Origin: Melittangium boletus DSM 14713
Lineage (GTDB): Bacteria > Myxococcota > Myxococcia > Myxococcales > Myxococcaceae
Direction: 5' to 3'
DNA length: 64,000 bases
Assembly: GCF_002305855.1 (NCBI RefSeq)
Contig: NZ_CP022163.1
Location: 7,003,765-7,067,764, forward strand
This document shows, piece after piece, positions 10,609-61,590 of this stretch. The position numbers were made by a program, and so were the translations under genes. The notes under the pieces were generated by a model that did no database searches, was not told the DNA's origin, and was given only the letters and a program-made list of their open reading frames with translations. Each line of letters opens with the position of its first letter. Position 1 is the stretch's first letter.

Positions 10609-10612
10609 AGGT

Positions 10613-10884
10613 GATGTCCGCGTGAGGCGCGAGGATGGTGCCCCAGAAGCCGTAGCTGGTGGCCTCGATCTTCGTGGTGTCGACGAAGTTGAAGAGGACG
10701 CTCTTCTGATTGATGCCACCGCTGAATGACTGGCCGAGGTGGCGAACCGGGCGTACGCGCCCCGGATGTTGATGACGACGCGGGAGTTGACCGGCGCGTT
10801 GATGGAGAAGTCGTTCTTCCGGCCGAAGACGCTGGTGTCCACGTCCTCGGCCACCTGGGAGACGCTCTTGCCTCCCTCGCACAC
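10613..10884 (-). pseudogene. Choice-of-anchor-A domain fragment (frameshifted)
   Basis: Two adjacent minus frames give '...NDFSINAPVNSRVVINIRGAYARF' and 'SGGINQKSVLFNFVDTTKIEATSYGFWGTILAPHADITF'. Together these match the choice-of-anchor-A pattern (VVINV-G...LFNFP...GSILAP-A). No start and no signal peptide. Confidence 0.4.
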
Positions 10885-10929: not shown

Positions 10930-11085
10930 TAGCCGACTTATGCGGTATGTCCACTAAAACGCCTCTCCCGCACTTCATGTGCTCCATGAGCCGTCCAAGA
11001 GCGGGACTCCTGCTGCTCCGTCGCACGCGACTCGCCAGCCGAGCAGCGAACACACAAAGTGCGGGAGAGCCACTAAAGCGGGGCA
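10930..11085. repeat. MITE-like element copy A (terminal inverted repeats CCGYTTTAGTGGCTCTCCCGCACTTT)
   Basis: Left arm 10933-10970 ('ctaaaacgcctctcccgcacttcatgtgctcc'). Right arm 11043-11070 ('acaaagtgcgggagagccactaaagcgg') is its reverse complement. Second copy at 57787-57967. Confidence 0.5.
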
Positions 11086-11108
11086 GGCTCACCCCGAGGT
11101 GCTACGTG

Positions 11109-12137
11109 ATGCGTTGTTCACTGGTGCTGCTCTGCTTGGCCCTGATGGGGTGTGGCGGCGCTGCTCCAAGCGTCCGTCATACGCCGGATGAGCAGAGGCG
11201 CTGTGTATATGTCCCGTCCCGTGACGAGGCGGCCGGAGCCTGGAATGAGACGGTGCCCTCCGCTCACGCGGGTGTGAACGTGGTGCTTGTCGCGGCGACG
11301 GCGGGGGCTTCGCCCGTGGCTCCCCCTGCCCCAAGTCCGGCTCCTGCCCTGGAATGGCTGTCGGGTGAGGGGTTGGGGAACGGCATTCCCCGGGGCGTGC
11401 TCCGGTTGGTGCCTGAAGGAGGCGCGGGCGCGGAGGTAGGGGCTGGCGGAGCCGCAGGGGAGACGGTGGTGGTGGGGGGAGCGTTCGTCGCAGCCGTTGG
11501 CAGTGGGCTGCTGGTCTGCCTGACGGCTCGTGCGGCCCTGGATGGGGAGAAGACCCCCATCGAGATTGCGGACGAGTATTACGGCACACACTTCGGAGAC
11601 GTGATGGGGTGGGTTCAAGGTCAATACCCGGCCCAGGTTCCTCCTCCTGGCGCAGCGCCCAGGTCGAAACCCGACGAGAGCACCGGCAAGAGGCTGGGGC
11701 GCATCTATGTCACCTACACAAAGCTCAATAAGATGACCCACCGCTACTACGCGGGGCGGACCAGCATGGTCGTCGATCTTGCTGTGTCCCTCGAATTTCA
11801 GGCCGCACTGGCGGTTTTCCTCCGAGACAGAAACCACCACCTGGACGAGAATGCTGAACCGGGTGGCGCCATGTTCGGCTTGGCGCAGACTGATCGATTT
11901 GATGTCGGCACCGGGGTTGACTATAGCCGTCGATACGACGACGTCGCTTACTGGCGGATTCGCGGGAGAGAGCAGCAGTTGATTGATTCCCTTGGAGGAG
12001 CCCACGCTGACACCGGAGCGCCTTATCGCACCGAGAACGCCGTACGCGGCGTGGCGAAAGAAAATCCACAAGGCAGAAGGTTCCACTCCGCCGCGACGGA
12101 GTTGTGGGGCCAACTTCACCCTTACACGGGATACTAG
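11109..12137 (+). CDS. Lipoprotein, candidate OME-delivered (SitA-like) polymorphic toxin; function of C-terminal domain unknown
   Basis: Start ATG 11109 (GTG 11106) preceded by GAGGTG, lying inside the right arm of the MITE-like element. Lipobox 'LLCLALMGCGG'. Ala/Gly/Pro-rich linker, then a globular C-terminal domain. Followed 3 nt later by a small low-GC ORF. Confidence 0.55.
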   Translation: MRCSLVLLCLALMGCGGAAPSVRHTPDEQRRCVYVPSRDEAAGAWNETVPSAHAGVNVVLVAATAGASPVAPPAPSPAPALEWLSGEGLGNGIPRGVLRLVPEGGAGAEVGAGGAAGETVVVGGAFVAAVGSGLLVCLTARAALDGEKTPIEIADEYYGTHFGDVMGWVQGQYPAQVPPPGAAPRSKPDESTGKRLGRIYVTYTKLNKMTHRYYAGRTSMVVDLAVSLEFQAALAVFLRDRNHHLDENAEPGGAMFGLAQTDRFDVGTGVDYSRRYDDVAYWRIRGREQQLIDSLGGAHADTGAPYRTENAVRGVAKENPQGRRFHSAATELWGQLHPYTGY

Positions 12138-12139
12138 GG

Positions 12140-12595
12140 ATGCCGCGAATCTACAAACCGGGCTCGTTCTTGAGAATCCCCCTTGCCGACGGCTCCTTCG
12201 GTTACGGCAGGGTGCTCAAACTGCCGCATGATGCCTATTACGATTACAGGACCGACACTCCAGATTCCGATCTGGAGCGGATTGCCTCCAAGCCTATCCT
12301 TTTCAAGATCATGGTTCGCCATATGGAGGAGAGGGCATGGGAGTTCATTGGGTGGAAAAAGCTGGAGGAGCAGTTTTCTCAACCGGTCGTCCAGTTCATG
12401 CAGGACATTGGGAACCTCCGCGACTGCACGATCTTCGACACCGTCGGCAATTCGAGGCGCGCGGAGCCCCAGGAGTGTGTGGGACTTGAGCGCTCGGCTG
12501 TCTGGGAAGAGGTGGGAGTCGAGCAACGCCTGCTCGACTCCTTCATGGGGCGGCCCAACGATGACGTGGAGCGCGTGAAGGTGCGCCTGAAATAG
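12140..12595 (+). CDS. Small cytoplasmic protein, candidate immunity protein (Imm-like)
   Basis: 152 aa, no signal peptide, N-terminus 'MPRIYKPGSFLRIPLADGSFGYGRVL'. GC ~55% versus ~69% background. Tightly coupled to the upstream lipoprotein. Confidence 0.5.
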   Translation: MPRIYKPGSFLRIPLADGSFGYGRVLKLPHDAYYDYRTDTPDSDLERIASKPILFKIMVRHMEERAWEFIGWKKLEEQFSQPVVQFMQDIGNLRDCTIFDTVGNSRRAEPQECVGLERSAVWEEVGVEQRLLDSFMGRPNDDVERVKVRLK

Positions 12596-12734
12596 GCACG
12601 CGCATAGGAGCGGACGCGGCTCAAAGCGGCGGGTTGTTCTGCGTGGAAGCGGCGGGAATCGAACCCGCCGCGCTCGGCCTCTCCGAGTCTCCGGGCATTC
12701 CGGAACCGCTGCCGTGGGAACCGGAGTGTCGTGA

Positions 12735-14084
12735 CTAGCCGATGCGGCCGATGGTGGCGCCCCGCTCGTAGACGGTGATGGGGCCATCCTCGGAGACGTT
12801 GATGGCCACGCCCCGGAAGCTCGCCCGCCACGCCGCGAGCGCCCGGGCTCCGGGCATGCTGGGCTCGCGCAGCCCCAGCCGGGCGATCTCCCTGGGGCTC
12901 GAAATCATGCAGGCGATGTCCAGCACGCTGCCGTCCTTGTCGAGCACCACGGCGCCGTCCGTGGCGGCCGCCGCGGTGATGACCTGGCGCTGCGCCCAGA
13001 CGGAGATGTTCTGGCCCCTCAGGCTGCGGCGCAGGTGGGAGTTGGCCGCGAGCGCGTGTCCATGGTCGGGGATGAAGTCCGTCAGATCCTCGCGCGAGTC
13101 GAGCAGGCAGAAGAGGGCCCCCGTGCGCTCGAAGGACAGGTCGATGGCGGCCCGGAGCACGCCGATGACCACGTCCTCGCGGAAGCGCAGGGACAGCCGC
13201 TCGTGCAGGGCCTCGTAGTCGAGCACGCGCCAGTGGCCGTGGGTCTTCTGGAAGACGGAGCCCTTGCCACTGAGGATGAACAGGTCTCCCTGCGGCGAGG
13301 CCACGAGCGCCACGTCATGCGCGGAGTGGCCGAGCACGGCCTGCACGGGGACGAGCGTTTCGTGCGGGGCGTAGCGCAGGGCGGCGTCGTTGCGGTCCAC
13401 CTCGGCGAGCGAGATGAAGCCGATGATGTTGCCGGAGTGCATGCTGCCGAGCAGCGCCACGCGGCGGCCATCCACCACGGTGCGGATCCACTTCTCGCGC
13501 AGGAGCGCGTTCTCGATGGAGATGCCGCCCGGCAGGGGGATGAACTTGTTCTGCAGCTTCTGCACGAGCTTGGGCGCCTTGCGCGCGACGATGAGGCAGT
13601 GGCGCACGGCGCGGCCCTCGTAGGTGAGGGCCATGGAGTCCTCCACGGCGCGGATCCAGTTGGACATCTGGTGCGGCCGGTAGTTGAGGAAGCGCGCCAC
13701 GGCGCGGCGCAGGCGCGTCTGCTCGAGCGAGGCCCAGTGCTCGTTGAGCGGCAGGGCGGCGGAGACGTGGGTCAGGTCGTCGTTGAAGACGCGGCAGAAG
13801 GCTCGCGCGAAGTGGCTGTCGCTCGTGCGCACCGGGCGCCACAGGTCGATGAGGAGCCCCGCCTGGGGCGTGGGTTGATCGAAGTAGAGCAGGGCGGCGA
13901 GCCGTGTCTCGTCGAGCGGCACCACCTTGGGCTTGAGCGCCGCGCGAGGGCCCAGCGCCTCGATCTGCGCGGCGAGGTCCGCCGCCGACAGCGAGGACGT
14001 GGTGCTGCCCGGGAAGATGTCCTTGAAGGCATTGGCCAGCGAGGCGAGTGCATCGACGATGACCAGGGGCCTGCGCGTTCGCAT
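12735..14084 (-). CDS. DAC (diadenylate cyclase)-like domain protein with ~300-aa unknown N-terminal region; RHR motif degenerate
   Basis: C-terminal ~150 aa align to the DisA_N/CdaA DAC fold ('TDGAVVLDKDGSVLDIACMI', 'GARALAAWRAS...VAINVSEDGPITVYERG' versus CdaA 'GTRHRAA...VVSEETG'). The DGA motif is kept, but RHR is replaced by ARA. Confidence 0.65.
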   Translation of the reverse strand: MRTRRPLVIVDALASLANAFKDIFPGSTTSSLSAADLAAQIEALGPRAALKPKVVPLDETRLAALLYFDQPTPQAGLLIDLWRPVRTSDSHFARAFCRVFNDDLTHVSAALPLNEHWASLEQTRLRRAVARFLNYRPHQMSNWIRAVEDSMALTYEGRAVRHCLIVARKAPKLVQKLQNKFIPLPGGISIENALLREKWIRTVVDGRRVALLGSMHSGNIIGFISLAEVDRNDAALRYAPHETLVPVQAVLGHSAHDVALVASPQGDLFILSGKGSVFQKTHGHWRVLDYEALHERLSLRFREDVVIGVLRAAIDLSFERTGALFCLLDSREDLTDFIPDHGHALAANSHLRRSLRGQNISVWAQRQVITAAAATDGAVVLDKDGSVLDIACMISSPREIARLGLREPSMPGARALAAWRASFRGVAINVSEDGPITVYERGATIGRIG

Positions 14085-14150
14085 CTGGAGGACATCCTAG
14101 GACGGGCGCGGGCCCCCGCACCGTTTCGTTTTCGTGGTGCGGTGCGTTGC

Positions 14151-14888
14151 TCAGGCGCCGCGGGTGGCCGCGTCCACGCGGTCCAGGTACCGGGAAAGCC
14201 GGGAGCGCGCGGAGATCTGATCGCGCTGCCAGGGCGTGATGTCCTGGCGCAGGCTGAAGAGCTGGGCGAACAGGCCCAGGTCGGCGATGGAGAAAGCGCC
14301 CAGCCAGAAGCCCTCCTCGGGGGCGCGGGCCTCCAGCGCGTCGAGCTGGGCCTGGAAGCGCCGCCAACACGCCTCCGGGCCCGCGCGCCAGACATCCCGT
14401 GCCACGACGGCGCTCACGATTTTCTTGCGCATCCGACCGGAGATGAGGCCCCGCAGGGGCGCGGGAATGGGCTTGAAGATCCGGTCGCGGAACCCGGCCC
14501 AGTTGCGATCGTCGGCCCAGCGCGAGGAGATGAAGAAGCCCACCAGCGACGTGTCCGCGAATTCCTCCCACAGGACGGCCTCGGCGGCGAGCTTCGCGTC
14601 CTGGGTCCCGTGGAAGGTGCGCCCCGTGAGGGACTGGAGCCTCAAGAGGATGTCGGTGGAGTCTCCCACGGCTTCGTTGTCCCCGATGAGGAGCACGGGC
14701 GCCTGTCCGGTGGAGTAGTACTTCTTGAAGCTGCCGGGCATGCCGTGGCGGCGCTCATAGGGCAGGCCCAGGTACTTCAGCGCGCGGTGCACCTTCACGC
14801 AGAACGGCGAGTAGCTTTCCAGGCCAGGGATGTCGGTTTCTCCGAGCTCGCACAGCACGAGCTTGGGCAGGGACGAGGGGGTGGTCAT
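14151..14888 (-). CDS. Glutathione S-transferase family protein
   Basis: Thioredoxin-like GST N-domain ('KLVLCELGETDIPGLESYSPFCVKV...PVLLIG') and a helical C-domain. Confidence 0.75.
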   Translation of the reverse strand: MTTPSSLPKLVLCELGETDIPGLESYSPFCVKVHRALKYLGLPYERRHGMPGSFKKYYSTGQAPVLLIGDNEAVGDSTDILLRLQSLTGRTFHGTQDAKLAAEAVLWEEFADTSLVGFFISSRWADDRNWAGFRDRIFKPIPAPLRGLISGRMRKKIVSAVVARDVWRAGPEACWRRFQAQLDALEARAPEEGFWLGAFSIADLGLFAQLFSLRQDITPWQRDQISARSRLSRYLDRVDAATRGA

Positions 14889-14977
14889 GGTGGCTCTTTC
14901 AATCGAATCGCCTCGGGGCGTCAAGCCACGCCTGGGCCTGATACCCTCGCGGCCCCCCTTCCTCCCTGGGAGTTCAC

Positions 14978-16132
14978 GTGACGGAGATAGAGAGCCTGGC
15001 GGCGTTCGAACAACACCTGACGGGTGGCAAAAGCCTCTCCAACGTCATCCTCCAGGGGTTGGACCTGATGGAGCAGGGGGAGGTGTTGCTGCGCGCGGAC
15101 CTCTCGGGCTCCGTCTTCCTGGGCTGCCTGCTGGACGCCAGGATCTTGCAGGAGGTGATCGGGCGGGGCGCCATGGTGTTCCCGCCGTTCTCGGGGCTGC
15201 CCTACTCGCCCTACCGGGGGGGCCTCTACACGCCCGAGGAGCTATACGCGGGCTTCGACCCCGCGCATCCCGAGAGCTACGCGGACACCCCGGACGCCCG
15301 CATCTACGCGCACTGGAACTCGCGAGGAGGGCCCAATCCGCCGTCGATCCTCGAGACCCTGGCGCAGCGGCTCCATGACCACGCCATCAGCGACGCCCTG
15401 GAGGAAGCCCTCATCGACCAGGGCCAGCCACGCCGGGTGGTGGCCATCATGGGCGGCCACTCCATGCTCCGAGGACAGGCGGACTACCGCGCGGTGGCGG
15501 AGCTGGCCCGCGCCCTGGCGCGTCTGGGCTTCTTCCTGGTGAGCGGCGGAGGCCCCGGCGCCATGGAGGCCACGCACCTGGGCGCGTGGTTCGCCGGACG
15601 GAGCGACGGCGAGCTGGACGCGGCGCTCGAGGTGTTGGCGCTGGCGCCGGGCTACAAGCACCGCGAGTGGCTGTCCCGGGCCTTCGAGGTGCGCGCCACC
15701 TGGCCGCTACGGGACGAGGATCGAGCCATCAGCGACAGCCTGGGCATTCCGACCTGGCTCTACGGCCACGAGCCGCCCAACCCCTTCGCCACGCGCATCG
15801 CCAAGTACTTCGCCAACAGCGTGCGCGAGGAGGGCCTGCTCACCATCGCCCAGGGCGGGGTCGTCTACTCGCCGGGCAGCGCCGGCACCGTTCAGGAGGT
15901 GTTCCAGGACGCGTGCCAGAACCACTACAACACGGTGGGCGTCATCAGTCCGATGATCTTCCTGGGCCGCGAGTTCTGGACGAAAACGAGGCCCGTGTAC
16001 CCGTTGCTGGAACACCTCGCCCAGGGGCACGACTACTCACGCTATCTGCTGCTCACGGACTCCCAGGAGGAGATCATCCAGGCGCTCGTGAAGTTCAACC
16101 AGGAGCGCGAGGCCCAGCGCGTCGCGGGTTGA
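14978..16132 (+). CDS. LOG-family Rossmann-fold protein (PpnN/YgdH-like nucleotide 5'-monophosphate nucleosidase family)
   Basis: 'VVAIMGGHSM...GFFLVSGGGPGAMEATHLGA' is the LOG/TIGR00730 'GGGxGxMEA' signature. Has N- and C-terminal extensions. GTG start. Confidence 0.7.
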   Translation: MTEIESLAAFEQHLTGGKSLSNVILQGLDLMEQGEVLLRADLSGSVFLGCLLDARILQEVIGRGAMVFPPFSGLPYSPYRGGLYTPEELYAGFDPAHPESYADTPDARIYAHWNSRGGPNPPSILETLAQRLHDHAISDALEEALIDQGQPRRVVAIMGGHSMLRGQADYRAVAELARALARLGFFLVSGGGPGAMEATHLGAWFAGRSDGELDAALEVLALAPGYKHREWLSRAFEVRATWPLRDEDRAISDSLGIPTWLYGHEPPNPFATRIAKYFANSVREEGLLTIAQGGVVYSPGSAGTVQEVFQDACQNHYNTVGVISPMIFLGREFWTKTRPVYPLLEHLAQGHDYSRYLLLTDSQEEIIQALVKFNQEREAQRVAG

Positions 16133-16212
16133 GTCCGTTGTCGCGTGCGGCGCGACCCCTGTAAGGGTCCGGCGAGTGCTTCGTCAGCCCAGGTGAAAGG
16201 AGCGATTTTCAC

Positions 16213-18582
<2,370 letters not shown>

Positions 18583-18591
18583 CCTCCGCCT

Positions 18592-19194
18592 TCAAGATCG
18601 GGCGCTCTGGCACGAGCAGTCCAGACACCCGCGTGCGGCACACGCGCCGCACGTGTGCTGGAGCCGCGTCTTGAGTGCCTGACGGGCCCGGTGCAGGCGG
18701 ACCATGGCGTTGTTGGGGGTGACTCCCGCCTCTCGCGCCACCTCGGAGACCGGGTGCTCCTCCAGGTCCACCCGCCGCACCATCCGTGCGTACTCGGGCT
18801 TGAGCGAGGGCAACACGCCGTGCAGGCACGCACAAACCTTCGGTTCGGCTCCCGGCTCGGGCTGTACCGCGACGGGCTCCCGGGCCTCACGCTCGAGCAC
18901 CCGGGATTCCGCGTTCCGGTGCCGATAATGGTCGGTCACGGCGTTGCGCAGCAGACGGTAGAACCACGCCACCGCGCGTTCCGTGTCCCGCAGCGATGCG
19001 CCTTTCTCGATCGCCTTGACGTACGCGGCCTGGAGCAAATCCTCCACCACCCTCTCGCTGTCCACCCGGCTCGCCAGGAAGGAGGCGAATCGCGCCCGAT
19101 GGCTCAACAAGGTTCGCAGAACCTCCTCATGCACCGGGGCTTGCTCCGATCCGGTGTCGGACTCGGCGATGGAGGGGAGGGGCGGATTTCTCAT
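18592..19194 (-). CDS. ECF sigma factor with C-terminal Cys-rich extension (CorE-like, putative copper-responsive)
   Basis: Sigma-70 region 2 ('DLLQAAYVKAIEKG...WFYRLLRNAVTDHYR') and region 4 ('VDLEEHPVSEVAREAGVTPNNAMVRLHRARQALKTRL'). C-terminal 'HTCGACAARGCLDCSCQ' plus internal 'VCAC'. Convergent with the Cu-ATPase. Confidence 0.7.
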   Translation of the reverse strand: MRNPPLPSIAESDTGSEQAPVHEEVLRTLLSHRARFASFLASRVDSERVVEDLLQAAYVKAIEKGASLRDTERAVAWFYRLLRNAVTDHYRHRNAESRVLEREAREPVAVQPEPGAEPKVCACLHGVLPSLKPEYARMVRRVDLEEHPVSEVAREAGVTPNNAMVRLHRARQALKTRLQHTCGACAARGCLDCSCQSARS

Positions 19195-19269
19195 GTCGAT
19201 GGGGAAGTATAACGAGGGGCATGGCCCCGGAACCATGCGCGGCCGCTCAGCACGCATGCGAGCAGGACG

Positions 19270-20886
19270 TCATCCCCTCATCAGGTCGGCCCAATTCAAG
19301 TCGAACCGGGCGAGGTACTTGCGCAGCCGATCCGCGTCATTGACGCTCTTCTTCTGGGCCCGGGATTGGGCGAACAGGAGTCGTCCCGCGTCGGAGAGCG
19401 AGCGGGCCTGACGGCACACGGTGAGGACTTCCGCGAGCTGCGCCCGGTCGAACCGATCGAGCGCTTCCGCCCGCTCGGCTCCCAGCACCTCCGTCACCAC
19501 GTCCTCCGCCGGGTGGCGCCGCGTGCCGGGCGTCCACGCGGCGAGCAGCCGCTCCCACTCCTCGTCCACGCCCTCGCGGGTGATGCGTCCTCCCGGCGCG
19601 AGCGTGGCCATGCGCAGCACCGCCGCGTTGAGGTCCCGGAAGTTGCCGCTCCAGCGCGCCTCGGGCGAGGTGGCGAAGCGCAGGAAGTGCTCCTGGGCCT
19701 CCTTGTTCATCGTCACCCGCGTGTCCAGTGCCTGCGAGGCCTGATCCAGCTCGTAGAGCAGGTTGGGGAGGATGTCCTCGGGCCGCTCGCGCAGGGGCGG
19801 CAGGCGGAAGGTCCACAGGTTGATGCGCGCGAGCAGATCCTCCCGGAAGCGTCCGCCCTCCACCTCGGCCAGCAGGTCGCGGTTGGTGCCCGCGAGGAGC
19901 TGGAAGTCGCTCTCCACCTCCTTGTCCGAGCCCACGGGCAGGAAGCGTTTGTCCTCGAGCGCCCGGAGGAGCATGGCCTGCTCGTCCGCGCCGAGCTCGC
20001 CGATCTCATCGAGGAACAACAATCCACCGTGTGCCTGCCGCAGCAGCCCCGGCCGGTCCGCCACCGCACCGGTGAACGCGCCCTTCACGTGGCCGAAGAG
20101 GGCGGACATCGCCCCGTCCCCACGCAGGGTGGCGCAGTTGACGTCCACGAACGGGCCGCTCACGTGCCGCCGGGTCTTCTTGAGCTGGTAGATGCGCTTG
20201 GCGAGCTGGGACTTGCCCGCCCCCGTGGGCCCCATCAGGAGGAGGGGCGCGCGGGAGCTCGTGGCCACCTGTTCGATCCGCTCGATGAGCCGGTTGAAGG
20301 CCGCGTTCCTCGTGTCGATGCCCGCCTTGAGGAAGGACAGGCCCTCGCGCTGCTCCTGCTGGAAGCGGCTCGCCAGCGTGTCGTACTGGGACAGGTCCAG
20401 GTCGATGAGGGCATGCACGCCGGGGCCTCCCTGATCCCTTCCCCCATGCGAGGGCGACGTCTGCACGAGCCGGGCGGGGATGTGGCGGCTCTCCACCAGG
20501 AGGAAGAGGCAGATCTGCGTGATGTGCGTCCCGGTGGTGATGTGGACGAGGTAGTCCTCCTGCTCGGGCTGGAAGGGGTAGGCCTTCGCGTAGTCGAGCA
20601 GCGCGCCGTAGACCTCCTCCAGGTCCCACGGGTTGCGGATGTCCACGGGGGTGGGGCGCACGCGCGTTTCCGGGGACACCTGGGCGATGTCCGCCGTCAC
20701 CGTCTGGGCCAGGTCCGCCTGCGCCGGGGGGTGGAGCAGTTCCAGGCGGTGCACCACCAGATCCTCCTGCTGGCACAGTCCCACGGTGGGCCGCCACCGC
20801 TCCCACCGCTTCGGAGTCCTCCCCGTGTCCAGGGTGGTGCCCAGCATCCCGATCACCACCGTCTCGCGCGCCCGTGTCTTCGCCAT
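19270..20886 (-). CDS. rtcR: Sigma-54-dependent transcriptional regulator RtcR (CARF-like N-domain + AAA+ + HTH)
   Basis: AAA+ sigma-54 activator motifs ('LLMGPTGAGKSQLAKRIY', 'GAFTGA', 'GLLFLDEIGEL', 'RFREDLLARINLWTFRLPPLRERPEDI'). Divergent from rtcBA. Confidence 0.85.
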   Translation of the reverse strand: MAKTRARETVVIGMLGTTLDTGRTPKRWERWRPTVGLCQQEDLVVHRLELLHPPAQADLAQTVTADIAQVSPETRVRPTPVDIRNPWDLEEVYGALLDYAKAYPFQPEQEDYLVHITTGTHITQICLFLLVESRHIPARLVQTSPSHGGRDQGGPGVHALIDLDLSQYDTLASRFQQEQREGLSFLKAGIDTRNAAFNRLIERIEQVATSSRAPLLLMGPTGAGKSQLAKRIYQLKKTRRHVSGPFVDVNCATLRGDGAMSALFGHVKGAFTGAVADRPGLLRQAHGGLLFLDEIGELGADEQAMLLRALEDKRFLPVGSDKEVESDFQLLAGTNRDLLAEVEGGRFREDLLARINLWTFRLPPLRERPEDILPNLLYELDQASQALDTRVTMNKEAQEHFLRFATSPEARWSGNFRDLNAAVLRMATLAPGGRITREGVDEEWERLLAAWTPGTRRHPAEDVVTEVLGAERAEALDRFDRAQLAEVLTVCRQARSLSDAGRLLFAQSRAQKKSVNDADRLRKYLARFDLNWADLMRG

Positions 20887-57382: not shown

Positions 57383-57739
57383 ATGAACGCTCCAATCTAC
57401 ACGCTCGTCCGAGGCGCCGACTGGCGGGCAGCCAAGACGGTGGGTGCCTACTGCGGCTCGGCCGACGACACGCGCGACGGCTTCCTGCACTTTTCCACGG
57501 CCGAGCAGGTGCGCGACAGCGCGCGCAAGCACCGCGCGGGGGAGCGAGACCTGTGGCTGGTGGCCGTCGATCCGGAGGCGTTGGGCGCGGCGCTGCGGTG
57601 GGAGCCAGCCTCGGGTGGCCGTCGCCCGGGGTTGTTCCCGCACTTGTACGGCCCGCTGCCGGTGTCGGCCGTGGTGTCGGCGGTTCCACTGCCGCTGGGC
57701 GGCGACGGGCAGCACACCTTCCCCGACGGGGTGCCGTAG
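57383..57739 (+). CDS. DUF952-domain protein (intact copy)
   Basis: 118 aa, 'DGFLHFSTAEQV...LWLVAVDPEAL'. Its 3' 336 bp are repeated at 59287-59623. Confidence 0.7.
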   Translation: MNAPIYTLVRGADWRAAKTVGAYCGSADDTRDGFLHFSTAEQVRDSARKHRAGERDLWLVAVDPEALGAALRWEPASGGRRPGLFPHLYGPLPVSAVVSAVPLPLGGDGQHTFPDGVP

Positions 57740-57786
57740 GGAGCGTTCAATCCCACTCCGCCGACGAGGCAGTCGTGGGCCTGATC

Positions 57787-57967
57787 CGTTTTAGTGGCTC
57801 TCCCGCACTTTATGTGCTCCGCGAACTGGAATGCTTTCTGCTCCAACAAGCGTTGCTCGCCACATGAGCGGTGAACATACAAAGTGAGGAGAGGCACGTA
57901 ACCGGCTCAAACCCGAACGCCACGCAGATGGCGAACCGCCTGCGACGGAGGAGAGCCACAAAATCGG
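57787..57967. repeat. MITE-like element copy B (same inverted-repeat family as 10930-11085)
   Basis: Left arm 'ccgttttagtggctctcccgcactttatgtgctcc' (57787-57821). Degenerate internal arm 57884-57905. Right arm 'ggaggagagccacaaaatcgg' (57947-57967) is the reverse complement of the left arm. Confidence 0.5.
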
Positions 57968-57990
57968 TTCAGAATCCATTGAAGGATATT

Positions 57991-58464
57991 TCATTCACCC
58001 AGCCAATAGAGACCGCGCCGGGTTCGCAGCACCTGCTCCAGGAACTCCGAGAGGGAACTGGCGACCTGCTTGCAGTAGGCCGGATCCGGCCACGCCTCGT
58101 GGTCGCCGTCGAAGAGGGGGTAGAGACCATTCTCCTGGCGACGCACATCTACCAGCACGTAGTTACCGTCCTGTACGTCGCAGAAGGCGAACACCGAGGC
58201 AGGACCCCACGTATCGTTATCCTCACCGTAGATGGCTACCCGTGCTCGGACGATCTCGGACAGGGGAAGCATCTGATACGGCGAGTTCGGCAGCCTCTTG
58301 ATCAACTCCGCCCCGTTGCAGTGCAGATAGAAGGCACGAAGGTCCGAGTCCAGCTTCCAGCCCACCCTCTGCTCGAACGCATCGATCTCCTCCGGCGTAG
58401 CAGGTGGATAGGGGAAGTGATCGCGGGAGACTTCCTCCAGCAGGCGGCTCATGGGCGTGGGCAT
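57991..58464 (-). CDS. SMI1/KNR4 (SUKH-1) family immunity protein
   Basis: 'TPEEIDAFEQRVGWKLDSDLRAFYLHCNGAELI...YQMLPLSEI...VFAFCDVQDGNYVLVDV' is a SUKH-1 pattern. No signal peptide. GC ~60%. ATG 58464 lies 3 nt after the toxin stop. Confidence 0.7.
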   Translation of the reverse strand: MPTPMSRLLEEVSRDHFPYPPATPEEIDAFEQRVGWKLDSDLRAFYLHCNGAELIKRLPNSPYQMLPLSEIVRARVAIYGEDNDTWGPASVFAFCDVQDGNYVLVDVRRQENGLYPLFDGDHEAWPDPAYCKQVASSLSEFLEQVLRTRRGLYWLGE

Positions 58465-58466
58465 CG

Positions 58467-59132
58467 TCAATTGTCTGTGTAGGGCAGATCGGGGCCCACT
58501 GTATTCCAGGGTGGCTGGCCGCCGTAGCACGCGGGATACGCCCTGTTGTACAGGTCGTGGACGCTGGGCTTCGCGGGGAAAATATTGTTGGGGTCCACTG
58601 GATTGCCTCCGTGCTGGAGGTCCCGGATGTGATGGCCGGGCCACGACTTGGTGCCATCGCCAGGCCACTCTCCAAATTTCTTGCTCCAGTCCTCCCGGAA
58701 GGACTCTCGAAATCTGTCCCACCTCTTGCGCTCCACTTCCTTCTTGTCTGTCGGCAGCTTGGGGTAGTTGCAGCAGCAGTGCCAGATGCCGTAGCGGCTC
58801 CCGGAATCAACGTCCACGGGTAAGAGGATGAGGCGGCCCTCCCAATCGAACTTGAGATCGGCCAGCCAAACGCAACCCATGAGCGGGGAACCTTCACTGG
58901 CGCACTGCATCTGGCACTGGTTCATGAATTGACGGCGGCACTGCCAGGGACCGTAGAAGAGGGTTGTCTTCATCCGTCCACCCGGAACCATCAGCCACGG
59001 CAGTTCCTTCTTCACAGCGGGCTTGGCCCCGGGTGATGGCGTGGGTTTAGTCCCGAGGGAACCGCTCGACTCGTTGATGGAGCCGCACGCGGCGAGGAGC
59101 ATCAGCAGTACCGCCGTCCAGTCCAGCTTCAT
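58467..59132 (-). CDS. Lipoprotein with C-terminal Tox-GHH (HNH/EndoVII-superfamily) nuclease domain; SitA-like OME toxin candidate
   Basis: ATG at 59132. Lipobox 'LLMLLAACGS'. Cys-rich middle region ('CRRQFMNQCQMQC', 'WHCCCNY'). C-terminal 'SWPGHHIRDLQHGGNPVDPNNI' matches the GHH signature. GC ~58%. Confidence 0.65.
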   Translation of the reverse strand: MKLDWTAVLLMLLAACGSINESSGSLGTKPTPSPGAKPAVKKELPWLMVPGGRMKTTLFYGPWQCRRQFMNQCQMQCASEGSPLMGCVWLADLKFDWEGRLILLPVDVDSGSRYGIWHCCCNYPKLPTDKKEVERKRWDRFRESFREDWSKKFGEWPGDGTKSWPGHHIRDLQHGGNPVDPNNIFPAKPSVHDLYNRAYPACYGGQPPWNTVGPDLPYTDN

Positions 59133-59286
59133 GAGAATCCCCCGTGATGATGGCCACCCCTTGCTGGGTAGCCAATTCGAGGGGATACCCGATGCGGCTG
59201 ACAACTCTCGGCGCTCGATACTCTCGGCGGCGTCCTCCGGGATCATCAAAAGCGCCAGTGTTTTGGCATAAGAGGGTGTGCCCGTC

Positions 59287-59623
59287 GCTCGTCCGAGGCG
59301 ACGACTGGCGGGCAGCCAAGACGGTGGGTGCCTACCGCGGCTCGGCCGACGACACGCGCGACGGCTTCCTGCACTTTTCCACGGCCGAGCAGGTGCGCGA
59401 CAGCGCGCGCAAGCACCGCGCGGGGGAGCGAGACCTGTGGCTGGTGGCCGTCGATCCGGAGGCGTTGGGCGCGGCGCTGCGATGGGAGCCGGCATCGGGC
59501 GGGCGTCGTCCGGGGCTGTTCCCGCACCTGTACGGCCCGCTGCCGGTGTCGGCCGTGTTGTCGGCGGTTCCGCTGCCGCTGGGCGGCGACGGGCAGCACA
59601 CCTTCCCCGACGGGGTGCCGTAG
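59287..59623 (+). pseudogene. 3' partial duplicate of the DUF952 gene (direct repeat of 57404-57739, ~96% identical)
   Basis: Nucleotide alignment shows ~14 mismatches in 337 bp, mostly synonymous. No N-terminal 5 codons and no start codon. Confidence 0.7.
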
Positions 59624-61503: not shown

Positions 61504-61517
61504 GGCCCTTCATTCAG

Positions 61518-61590
61518 AGCGGCGGACCGGGTTCGAACCGGCGACCCCGAGCTTGGGAAGCTCGTGCTCTACCAGCTGAGCTACCACCGC
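61518..61590 (-). tRNA. tRNA-Gly (anticodon CCC)
   Basis: Reverse complement 'GCGGTGGTAGCTCAGCTGGTAGAGCACGAGCTTCCCAAGCTCGGGGTCGCCGGTTCGAACCCGGTCCGCCGCT' folds as a cloverleaf. 7-bp acceptor stem, D-arm GCTC/GAGC, anticodon loop TTCCCAA, T-arm GCCGG/CCGGT with TTCGAAC loop. CCA not encoded. Confidence 0.85.

Follow-up and report, generated by a model that had tools for sequence, protein, structure and literature searches.

The 64-kb stretch of Melittangium boletus DSM 14713 analyzed here (contig NZ_CP022163.1, positions 7,003,765 to 7,067,764; hereafter the window) has a G+C content (GC) of 0.689, with top protein matches in Archangium, Cystobacter, and Hyalangium, and it carries a two-gene cassette that probably represents a horizontally mobile polymorphic-toxin/immunity islet combining a lipoprotein nuclease with an Imm26 protein. 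The first gene would encode a Sec/Lsp-exported, lipid-anchored protein whose C-terminal ∼155 residues would form a metal-dependent GIY-YIG nuclease (URI fold, Tox-URI1 type), and the second, translationally coupled gene a cytoplasmic Imm26 protein that would protect the producer and its clonemates by binding and neutralizing the nuclease. The toxin would most likely kill related myxobacteria devoid of a matching Imm26 allele by cutting their cytoplasmic DNA. The core of this interpretation (a lipoprotein toxin, coupled cytoplasmic immunity, and scars of mobile elements) had been put forward in an earlier note made from the sequence alone and is strongly supported by the present analysis.

The second gene (12140–12595, plus strand) encodes a protein of 151 amino acids (aa) without signal peptide, which matches the Pfam family Imm26 (PF15428) over profile positions 1–106 of 107 with a score of 50.2 bits (E = 3.6e-13), well above the gathering cut-off of 23.3 bits. 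Imm26 had been offered as a guess in the earlier note, and the comparison with immunity-family profiles proved it right. The open reading frame (ORF) begins 2 nt past the stop codon of the toxin gene, and the same arrangement was found when the window was surveyed together with 81 related toxin loci (L-numbers below), i.e. 82 sequences with 88 cassette intervals: an Imm26-type gene lies 3′ of the toxin in essentially all of them, save contig ends and disrupted loci (L066, L074). Cassettes stand in tandem in L019, L033, and L063; L035, L036, L038, and L049 contain additional, “orphan” immunity genes. Toxin and immunity protein co-diverge across related loci, from 94% down to about 60% identity. 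Imm26 is the immunity family of Tox-URI1 toxins (Zhang et al. 2012; PMC3482391), and TipC, an Imm26-domain protein, has been shown experimentally to neutralize a Mg-dependent DNase toxin (PMC10833071). A toxin/immunity function of the gene pair is very probable, and neutralization of the toxin by the Imm26 partner would be the expected mode of protection.

The C-terminal toxin domain (aa ∼190–342; 11676–12134, plus strand) was assigned to the GIY-YIG/URI fold and to the Tox-URI1 type on the basis of motif, fold, and architecture. Pfam holds no Tox-URI1 model, and the placement makes use of the published signature and associations. This signature (Y, YxG, R, [RK]xxE, N; PMC3482391) is found in full, with Y203, Y214-x-G216, R239 (also R217), R285-x-x-E288, and N310, which together with H243 make up the candidate catalytic residues. 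An exhaustive search with aa 145–342 as query matched 354 representative proteins; across diverse members of this set, Y203, Y214, G216, R217, R239, H243, G286, R287, E288, Q289, and D293 are invariant, R285 and N310 nearly so. In 61 of the 61 hits covering the domain fully, it is located at the extreme C-terminus or within a few residues of it. Among its carriers are proteins that combine SpvB, TcdB-mid, and RHS repeats (2352, 1646, and 2604 aa) as well as several plain Rhs proteins, and many of the shorter matches open with the Rhs core-tip motif. Such an extreme C-terminal position on Rhs/Tc-type carriers is a hallmark of the C-terminal domain that polymorphic toxins carry. The domain is also preceded by a different lipoprotein N-terminal domain of ∼220 aa in P0132 and by plain Sec signal peptides in the short proteins P0128, P0130, P0136, and P0138, and has therefore been recruited by several small secreted carriers besides Rhs. 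Published Tox-URI1 domains are associated with RHS and TcdB/TcaC carriers and have Imm14, Imm26, Imm44, and Imm51 neighbors (PMC3482391). The window pair resembles known Tox-URI1/Imm26 pairs in its signature, the position of Imm26 directly downstream, the RHS and TcdB/TcaC carriers of its relatives, and delta-proteobacterial hosts (PMC3482391), but it differs from them by a short Archangiaceae lipoprotein module in place of an Rhs, filamentous, or type VI secretion system (T6SS) carrier.

An AlphaFold2 (AF2) model of the domain, computed from a deeper alignment, displays a beta-beta-alpha-beta-alpha-alpha topology (predicted local distance difference test, pLDDT, 88.6; predicted template modeling score, pTM, 0.82). 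The structural relatives listed for this model are headed by the catalytic domain of I-TevI with a score of 6.2 (2.4 Å over 76 residues), followed by a GIY-YIG restriction enzyme (4.7), the GIY-YIG domain of UvrC (4.4) and, lower on the list, T4 EndoII, SLX1, and R.Eco29kI. Since Foldseek returned nothing significant with the same model, the fold evidence for GIY-YIG is by itself only moderate; combined with the motif, the predicted Tox-URI1-type assignment is convincing. The Pfam GIY-YIG profile (PF01541) does not match the window protein and gives one weak match (E = 0.12) among 27 members of the C-domain family, so the predicted relation of the window protein to GIY-YIG enzymes is visible at the level of fold and motif only. 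GIY-YIG nuclease chemistry seems quite likely to us, and DNA would be its presumed substrate.

The toxin gene itself (11109–12137, plus strand; 342 aa; beginning with MRCSLVLLCLALMGC) has its ATG at 11109 and the sequence GAGGTG 7 nt upstream of it. It encodes a lipoprotein signal peptide with the lipobox L-M-G-C (11109–11153), whose Cys15 corresponds to 11151–11153. In an alignment of 26 full-length toxin homologs, on which the counts of lipobox and invariant residues are based, the G-C of the lipobox is invariant (26/26). The mature N-terminus, CGGAAPS, has neither Lys at +2 nor Ala at +7 and is thus predicted to be sorted to the outer membrane according to the rule for Myxococcus xanthus, which requires the absence of both (quoted in PMC5562445). 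Judging from these signals, export of the toxin as a lipoprotein is highly likely, and its location would be the outer membrane. In total, 258 homologs of the toxin, mostly full length (∼340 aa), were found in Archangium, Cystobacter, and Hyalangium; every one of them is annotated as hypothetical. The whole toxin matched no Pfam or NCBIfam family, and an exact-protein look-up returned no record for it or for its neighbor of 449 aa.

Between the lipid-modified cysteine and the toxin domain lie ∼170 aa, mostly of low complexity, of which ∼100 are poorly conserved (pLDDT <50) and ∼60 are conserved. Two features are found there. The first is a hydrophobic, Gly/Ala-rich transmembrane (TM)-like helix (aa 118–144; 11460–11540, plus strand), predicted with low confidence and marked by invariant columns, one face of which is lined by the invariant small residues G124, A128, G131, L135, T139, and A142. 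The second is a conserved motif of ∼30 aa on the 3′ side of the helix, DGEKTPIEIADEYYGTHFGDVMGWVQGQYP (11541–11633, plus strand), which reads TPIxIADEYYGTHFGD...GW, includes the invariant residues P150, A154, D155, Y158, D164, G167, and W168, and is confined to the toxin family. The full-length AF2 model is poor (pLDDT 46), and a Foldseek search with it was meaningless. We propose that the helix and the following motif (aa 118–175) could act as a minimal entry module across the inner membrane of the recipient, the helix serving as the entry device. The possibility that this N-terminal module is shared with other toxin domains was considered and rejected, as all proteins recovered with aa 1–178 as query were members of the same family, or fragments of them, and had the same C-domain.

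The toxin belongs to a multi-copy family. In a scan of one genome per species, 245 relatives were recovered, and the best 80, from which the taxonomy was read, come exclusively from Cystobacter, Archangium, Hyalangium, Vitiosangium, or metagenome-assembled genomes of Myxococcaceae/Archangiaceae. A single genome contains at least six loci in C. fuscus Cbf 10, at least seven in A. lansingense, and at least eight in A. violaceum Cb vi76. At least six to eight diverged alleles, tandem copies, and orphan immunity genes suggest, at the level of gene content, a pattern resembling a kin barcode.

How the toxin would be delivered can be considered in the light of the SitA/SitI systems of Myxococcus. 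It would reach its targets by cell contact, most plausibly through TraAB-mediated outer membrane exchange, a route to which we give slightly less than an even chance. Like SitA, it is a myxobacterial lipoprotein with an outer-membrane-type lipobox and a C-terminal nuclease-type toxin (PMC5562445, PMC8546572), followed in the operon by a cytoplasmic immunity gene, and it occurs as many diverged alleles on mobile DNA in genera that host traAB; moreover, its toxin domain is fixed within the family, as it is in SitA4, SitA6, and SitA7. Indeed, traAB alleles have been reported in Archangium gephyra, Cystobacter fuscus, C. violaceus, and Hyalangium minutum (PMC6372800). The differences are nevertheless substantial. 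Each SitA family is defined by an escort domain of ∼375 aa (PMC8546572), which the cassette lacks (pre-toxin region of ∼170 aa), as it lacks sitB, and the tested SitA alleles carry WHH/colicin DNase, CdiA DNase or tRNase, AHH, or HNH toxins and not GIY-YIG. The earlier note had seen a SitA3-like islet. This affiliation is not supported, given that SitA3 has an N-terminal domain of 399–441 aa and a CdiA-type tRNase as toxin (the conserved N-region of SitA1 measuring 507 aa; PMC5562445, PMC8546572), against a mostly low-complexity region of ∼170 aa followed by a GIY-YIG/Tox-URI1 toxin in the window. In view of the published sizes of the escort domains, the toxin should not, on present evidence, be placed in SitA3 or in another of the SitA families described so far.

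The missing escort domain also leaves room for an exported lipoprotein toxin that travels otherwise, either packed in outer-membrane vesicles or, after processing, as a soluble bacteriocin taken up via a receptor, as are colicins and TepC. The plain Sec signals that precede related C-domains in the four short proteins mentioned above would fit such a route, as would the Imm26-partnered TepC of Yersinia pseudotuberculosis, which acts without contact through an outer-membrane receptor (PMC10833071). The TepC/TipC pair is comparable to ours by its Imm26-domain immunity protein, its tight binding, and a Mg-dependent DNase devoid of a recognizable Pfam domain, but TepC is a T6SS effector and an iron-binding protein taken up via a TonB-dependent receptor, not a lipoprotein (PMC10833071). 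Against this alternative, the lipobox cysteine is invariant in the toxin family, the family is seen only in Archangiaceae genera with traAB, and lipoprotein toxins are known cargo of outer membrane exchange in myxobacteria (PMC5562445, PMC8546572). We consider delivery by vesicles or as a soluble bacteriocin improbable.

The cassette stands out by its base composition. GC is 0.58 for the immunity gene, 0.59 for the toxin C-domain, and 0.626 for the cassette as a whole (11090–12669), compared with 0.70 for the adjacent 449-aa gene; windows of 300 nt dip to 0.55–0.56, and GC at third codon positions (GC3) is 0.69 and 0.76 in the two cassette genes versus 0.92–0.96 in their neighbors. The ORF coordinates and the GC drop given in the earlier note were both correct. 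A conserved mobile block (11090–12669, plus strand) comprises the ribosome-binding site, the toxin gene, the immunity gene, a 39-nt trailer, and a core resembling the 3′ end of ssrA, the gene for transfer-messenger RNA (tmRNA). From 11090 to 12668–12671, this block of 1.58 kb shares 90–95% DNA identity with at least nine other Archangiaceae loci (L001, L002, L003, L005, L006, L008, L009, L023, and L048), while flanks and neighboring genes are unrelated at each of them. Its sharp right edge coincides with the 5′ edge of the core, GGCGGGTTCGATTCCCGCCGCTTCCA, on the minus strand. As a separate observation, an IS21-family insertion (IstA transposase and IstB ATPase, recognized by eye from ORF translations) at L004 7498–10248 splits the immunity gene from the ssrA-like core in an otherwise near-identical cassette of Archangium minus.

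The core (12644–12669, minus strand) corresponds to the T-arm and 3′ acceptor strand of tmRNA and constitutes a putative att core. A tRNA-like 3′ fragment had been noticed at this place before. The T-arm-like sequence does exist, but it matches the tmRNA 3′ end, and ARAGORN finds no tRNA; what had been taken for a tRNA-like scar is an ssrA-3′-end-like piece that accompanies the cassette as it moves and signals an insertion site that varies between strains. The Rfam tmRNA model matches 12652–12668 with E = 0.004, below the gathering threshold and over the T-arm only. In other loci it aligns both acceptor strands of the tRNA-like domain, and in some of them (L055 5753–5830, for example) its alignment joins a 5′ GGGGCGG strand to the 3′ end as a mini tRNA-like domain. 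In many viral contigs, genuine tmRNA genes have a near-identical 25-mer as their 3′ end, which is also found there as isolated 3′ fragments. Two candidates were discarded: a real tRNA or tmRNA gene at 12.6–12.7 kb (none by ARAGORN, T-arm only by Rfam, and a fold no better than that of shuffled sequences), and the far end of a large island anchored at the tRNA-Gly gene of the window (61517–61590), whose sequence differs.

Taken by itself, the core is weak evidence, as 4 of 100 shuffles of the 64 kb also give one 19-mer match; its significance comes from its recurrence at cassette ends in other genomes. Among 992 kb of toxin loci, 59 copies were counted at ≤3 mismatches, of which 44 lie ≤700 nt from cassette ends. 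The density reaches 0.38/kb near these ends versus 0.020/kb elsewhere, the background being taken from the flanks of the same loci (19-fold; binomial p about 1e-26). Cassettes with a core on both sides have them as direct repeats in 8 of 8 cases, 1.6–2.2 kb apart; for a second subfamily, it is precisely the CCA end of the core that forms the left boundary. Several different 5′ contexts of the core recur, over ∼75 nt in L016 and L018–L022, and over ∼100 nt in L002, L006, L023, L028, L042, L046, and L055. On the minus strand, the core of the window is followed by the trailer (12605–12643; ...CGCAGAACAACCCGCCGCTTTGAGCCGCGTCCGCTCCT), part of a repeated att-like unit; it is ∼80% identical after the core of L082, where it extends over ∼130 nt and is duplicated, and it is also present in L062 and L043.

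Comparison with a close relative indicates what may happen at this site. L082 (metagenome contig Ga0081606_1000010) is 93.7% identical to window positions 12605–20048 and keeps both the 449-aa gene and the tRNA-like element with its core at the matching site. Where the window carries the cassette, it has a 4.17-kb insert (L082 7406–11677) with a gene for a 1121-aa LRR-Roc-COR-PNP_UDP_1 protein, flanked by exact 25-nt cores and 93-nt trailers (86% identity) in direct repeat. The product, a ROCO-type NTPase whose C-domain is nucleosidase-like, is reminiscent of an anti-phage defence protein. Since L082 carries other cargo at the same core, the site is an insertion hot spot that varies between close relatives; comparing presence and absence in this way confirms that the cargo is strain-variable. 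Alignment of the two sequences also delimits a host-side 5′ part of the tRNA-like element (12670–12730, minus strand), immediately past the stop codon of the 449-aa gene. This part is common to L082 and not to other cassette copies (it diverges from L001 and L002), and contains GGCAGCGG, which pairs 7/8 with the 3′ strand, in a fold not better than shuffles (z = -0.7). The cassette would thus have been inserted at a tmRNA-3′-end-like attachment sequence downstream of a core gene, possibly by an integrase, with cargo varying between close relatives. Islands at tmRNA (ssrA) 3′ ends are similar in their boundary at the T-arm/acceptor 3′ part, in the direct core repeats that flank them, and in their variable cargo (seen here in the relatives). 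They differ in that the sites considered here are short pseudo-3′-ends dispersed over megabases and not the ssrA gene, and in that the units measure 1.6–4.2 kb without integrase, a single core being left in the window. For site-specific (att-type) mobility, we regard the case as evenly balanced.

Several observations weigh against the interpretation proposed here, some of them against mobility. The left boundary of the block is ragged, ending between -15 and about -140 nt from the ATG among the copies; no second core or trailer was found in the window, even at 6/26 mismatches; no integrase or recombinase is obvious beside the cassette, where no systematic search for one was made; and no sigma-70-like promoter is found upstream of the cassette. 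Core and inverted repeat (see below) might then be incidental, i.e. terminator-like hairpins or dispersed repeats, with the cassettes spreading by homologous recombination or duplication. This explanation would account for the single core, the missing integrase, and the ragged boundary. It would also suit the position of the core, a strong G+C hairpin ∼50 nt past the immunity stop codon, and the fact that the loci were chosen for carrying the toxin, so that the background density comes from their own flanks only. It fits less well with the identity of the core to the tmRNA 3′ end, a classic integrase target, and with homology between copies that stops exactly at the core or its CCA end. The uniform direct orientation of the 8/8 two-sided cases and the unrelated cargo of L082, inserted at the same host site between two exact 25-nt cores, also speak against it. 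Finally, the core is found in both orientations relative to the cassette genes, which argues against a terminator role, and no terminator-like site was scored. Incidental repeats are a possible but doubtful explanation.

The remaining objections concern the toxin. The toxin and its family profiles are without match in Pfam GIY-YIG, the toxin families of Pfam, NCBIfam, or the PDB, so that comparison with polymorphic-toxin profiles, successful for the immunity protein, gave no toxin family for the C-domain. Within the set recovered by sequence search, the N-terminal module is never paired with another toxin domain, and modular “polymorphism” in the strict sense is absent. The TM-like helix has a Kyte-Doolittle 19-residue mean of 2.36 at aa 120–138, exceeding that of the signal peptide. 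On this property, it could be a stop-transfer anchor, leaving the nuclease in the inner membrane facing the cytoplasm of the producer; such anchoring could not be reconciled with Lol sorting or with outer membrane exchange. The cassette might then be an addiction or stabilization module, with a cytoplasmic nuclease restrained by Imm26 and loss of the islet killing the cell, a post-segregational killing of the toxin-antitoxin type that would stabilize the mobile element. Besides the hydrophobicity of the helix and its conserved small-residue face, the cytoplasmic immunity protein, its tight coupling to the toxin gene, and the position of cassettes at the edges of strain-variable insertions would all agree with this scenario. 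Nevertheless, every full-length homolog has a signal peptide and a lipobox, which are needless for an intracellular toxin, and the same C-domain is found on secreted Rhs and Tc-type proteins. In addition, six to eight diverged alleles per genome, orphan immunity genes, and tandem arrays correspond to the pattern of inter-cellular polymorphic toxins. An addiction module therefore appears rather unlikely, and we retain an exported, inter-cellular toxin as the preferred interpretation.

Immediately upstream of the block lies an element of ∼140 nt resembling a miniature inverted-repeat transposable element (MITE; 10950–11092), whose conserved terminal block ends with ...GGGGCAGGCTCAC at 11092. Its arms (10963–10984 and 11048–11069) are 22 nt long and 86% complementary, and, as single-stranded DNA, the element has a better fold than shuffled sequences (z = -2.6). 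A second copy is present at ∼57775–57900 of the window (two matches are given by 0/100 shuffles), and L016 and L064 each have a further copy, which immediately follows the cassette in the former and lies ∼620 nt downstream of it in the latter. The inverted-repeat element described in the earlier note is real and recurs, but the start of the toxin gene is not inside its right arm: the arm ends at 11069 and the conserved element at 11092, which places the ATG (11109) 17 nt beyond. In this copy, a direct repeat that matches at 10/11 positions, CCACTAAA[A/G]CG, is found on either side of the arms; in other copies the same sequence is part of the arm. The element resembles MITEs by its size, its non-coding nature, its terminal inverted repeats, and its several copies (two in the window), but it departs from them by the lack of a clear target-site duplication, by the location of all four copies beside toxin cassettes, and by a left arm that is rearranged here; no parent transposon was found. 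The upstream sequence common to other cassette copies stops at the GGCAGG junction of the window, where the inverted-repeat element takes the place of the usual ∼120 nt. The native upstream region of the cassette would thus have been replaced by the MITE-like element.

The second copy adjoins the SUKH immunity gene of another lipoprotein cassette at 58–59 kb. There, a lipoprotein gene (58470–59156, minus strand) without Pfam match is associated with a SUKH/SMI1_KNR4 immunity gene (57994–58461, minus strand), and the cassette is bracketed by two DUF952 copies, at 57383–57739 and in the 3′ part of 59144–59623. The whole segment (57383–59623) gives the impression of an insertion by which the target gene was duplicated. 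The parallel previously drawn between the two cassettes stands as regards the lipoprotein, the SUKH/SMI1_KNR4 partner, and the shared inverted repeat; the Tox-GHH label given to the second one was not confirmed by Pfam.

Farther upstream, gene debris is found in the form of a frameshifted, truncated choice-of-anchor A gene (10610–10880, minus strand), whose spliced two-frame translation matches TIGR04215 (choice_anch_A; E = 5e-18) and PF20597 (E = 8e-16) and keeps only profile positions ∼148–230 of 255. A stretch related to this fragment occurs near a cassette in L064 (8600–8771). Upstream of the fragment is a marR-eamA pair of lower GC, and the whole stretch of ∼9.1–12.67 kb may be foreign. 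The left junction of the insertion was not found, because left of 12605 the window and L082 have no sequence in common; in the closest cassette copies, the left boundary is free of any degenerate core. Neither a sigma-70-like promoter nor an intrinsic terminator was detected around the cassette. On its other side, the 449-aa gene (12735–14084, minus strand) has a native GC3 of 0.96, is 99% identical in L082, and matches no Pfam or NCBIfam family.

The toxin domain (Tox-URI1) and the immunity domain (Imm26) are of already known kinds. What is new here is the size and multi-allelic nature of an unannotated toxin family, a lipoprotein delivery module that is specific to Archangiaceae and has one TM-like helix only, and, as read from the sequences, cassettes bracketed by tmRNA-3′-end-like repeats at dispersed, strain-variable sites. 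A bolder proposal, which we advance only tentatively and hold to be unlikely as a whole, would join two ideas. On the one hand, integrase-less mini-islets of 1.6–2.2 kb and other cargo (such as the ROCO-nucleosidase) would be exchanged at dispersed pseudo-tmRNA 3′ ends, giving strain-specific alleles; on the other hand, the lipoprotein would be a seventh, minimal family of outer-membrane-exchange toxins, in which one TM-like helix replaces the ∼375-aa escort.

To conclude, more than 250 “hypothetical” proteins can be understood from now on as Imm26-partnered lipoprotein toxins with a GIY-YIG nuclease. A lipid anchor, one TM-like helix, and a 30-aa motif offer a compact test case for the crossing of the inner membrane, which is an open question for SitA. 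Besides, the core-bracketed cassettes suggest a mechanism of cassette exchange that could explain the fast turnover of kin-discrimination loci. The SitA-like “barcode” logic of Myxococcus would thereby be encountered in another myxobacterial family, with a far smaller delivery module, and this toxin family may help social bacteria to distinguish kin from non-kin.

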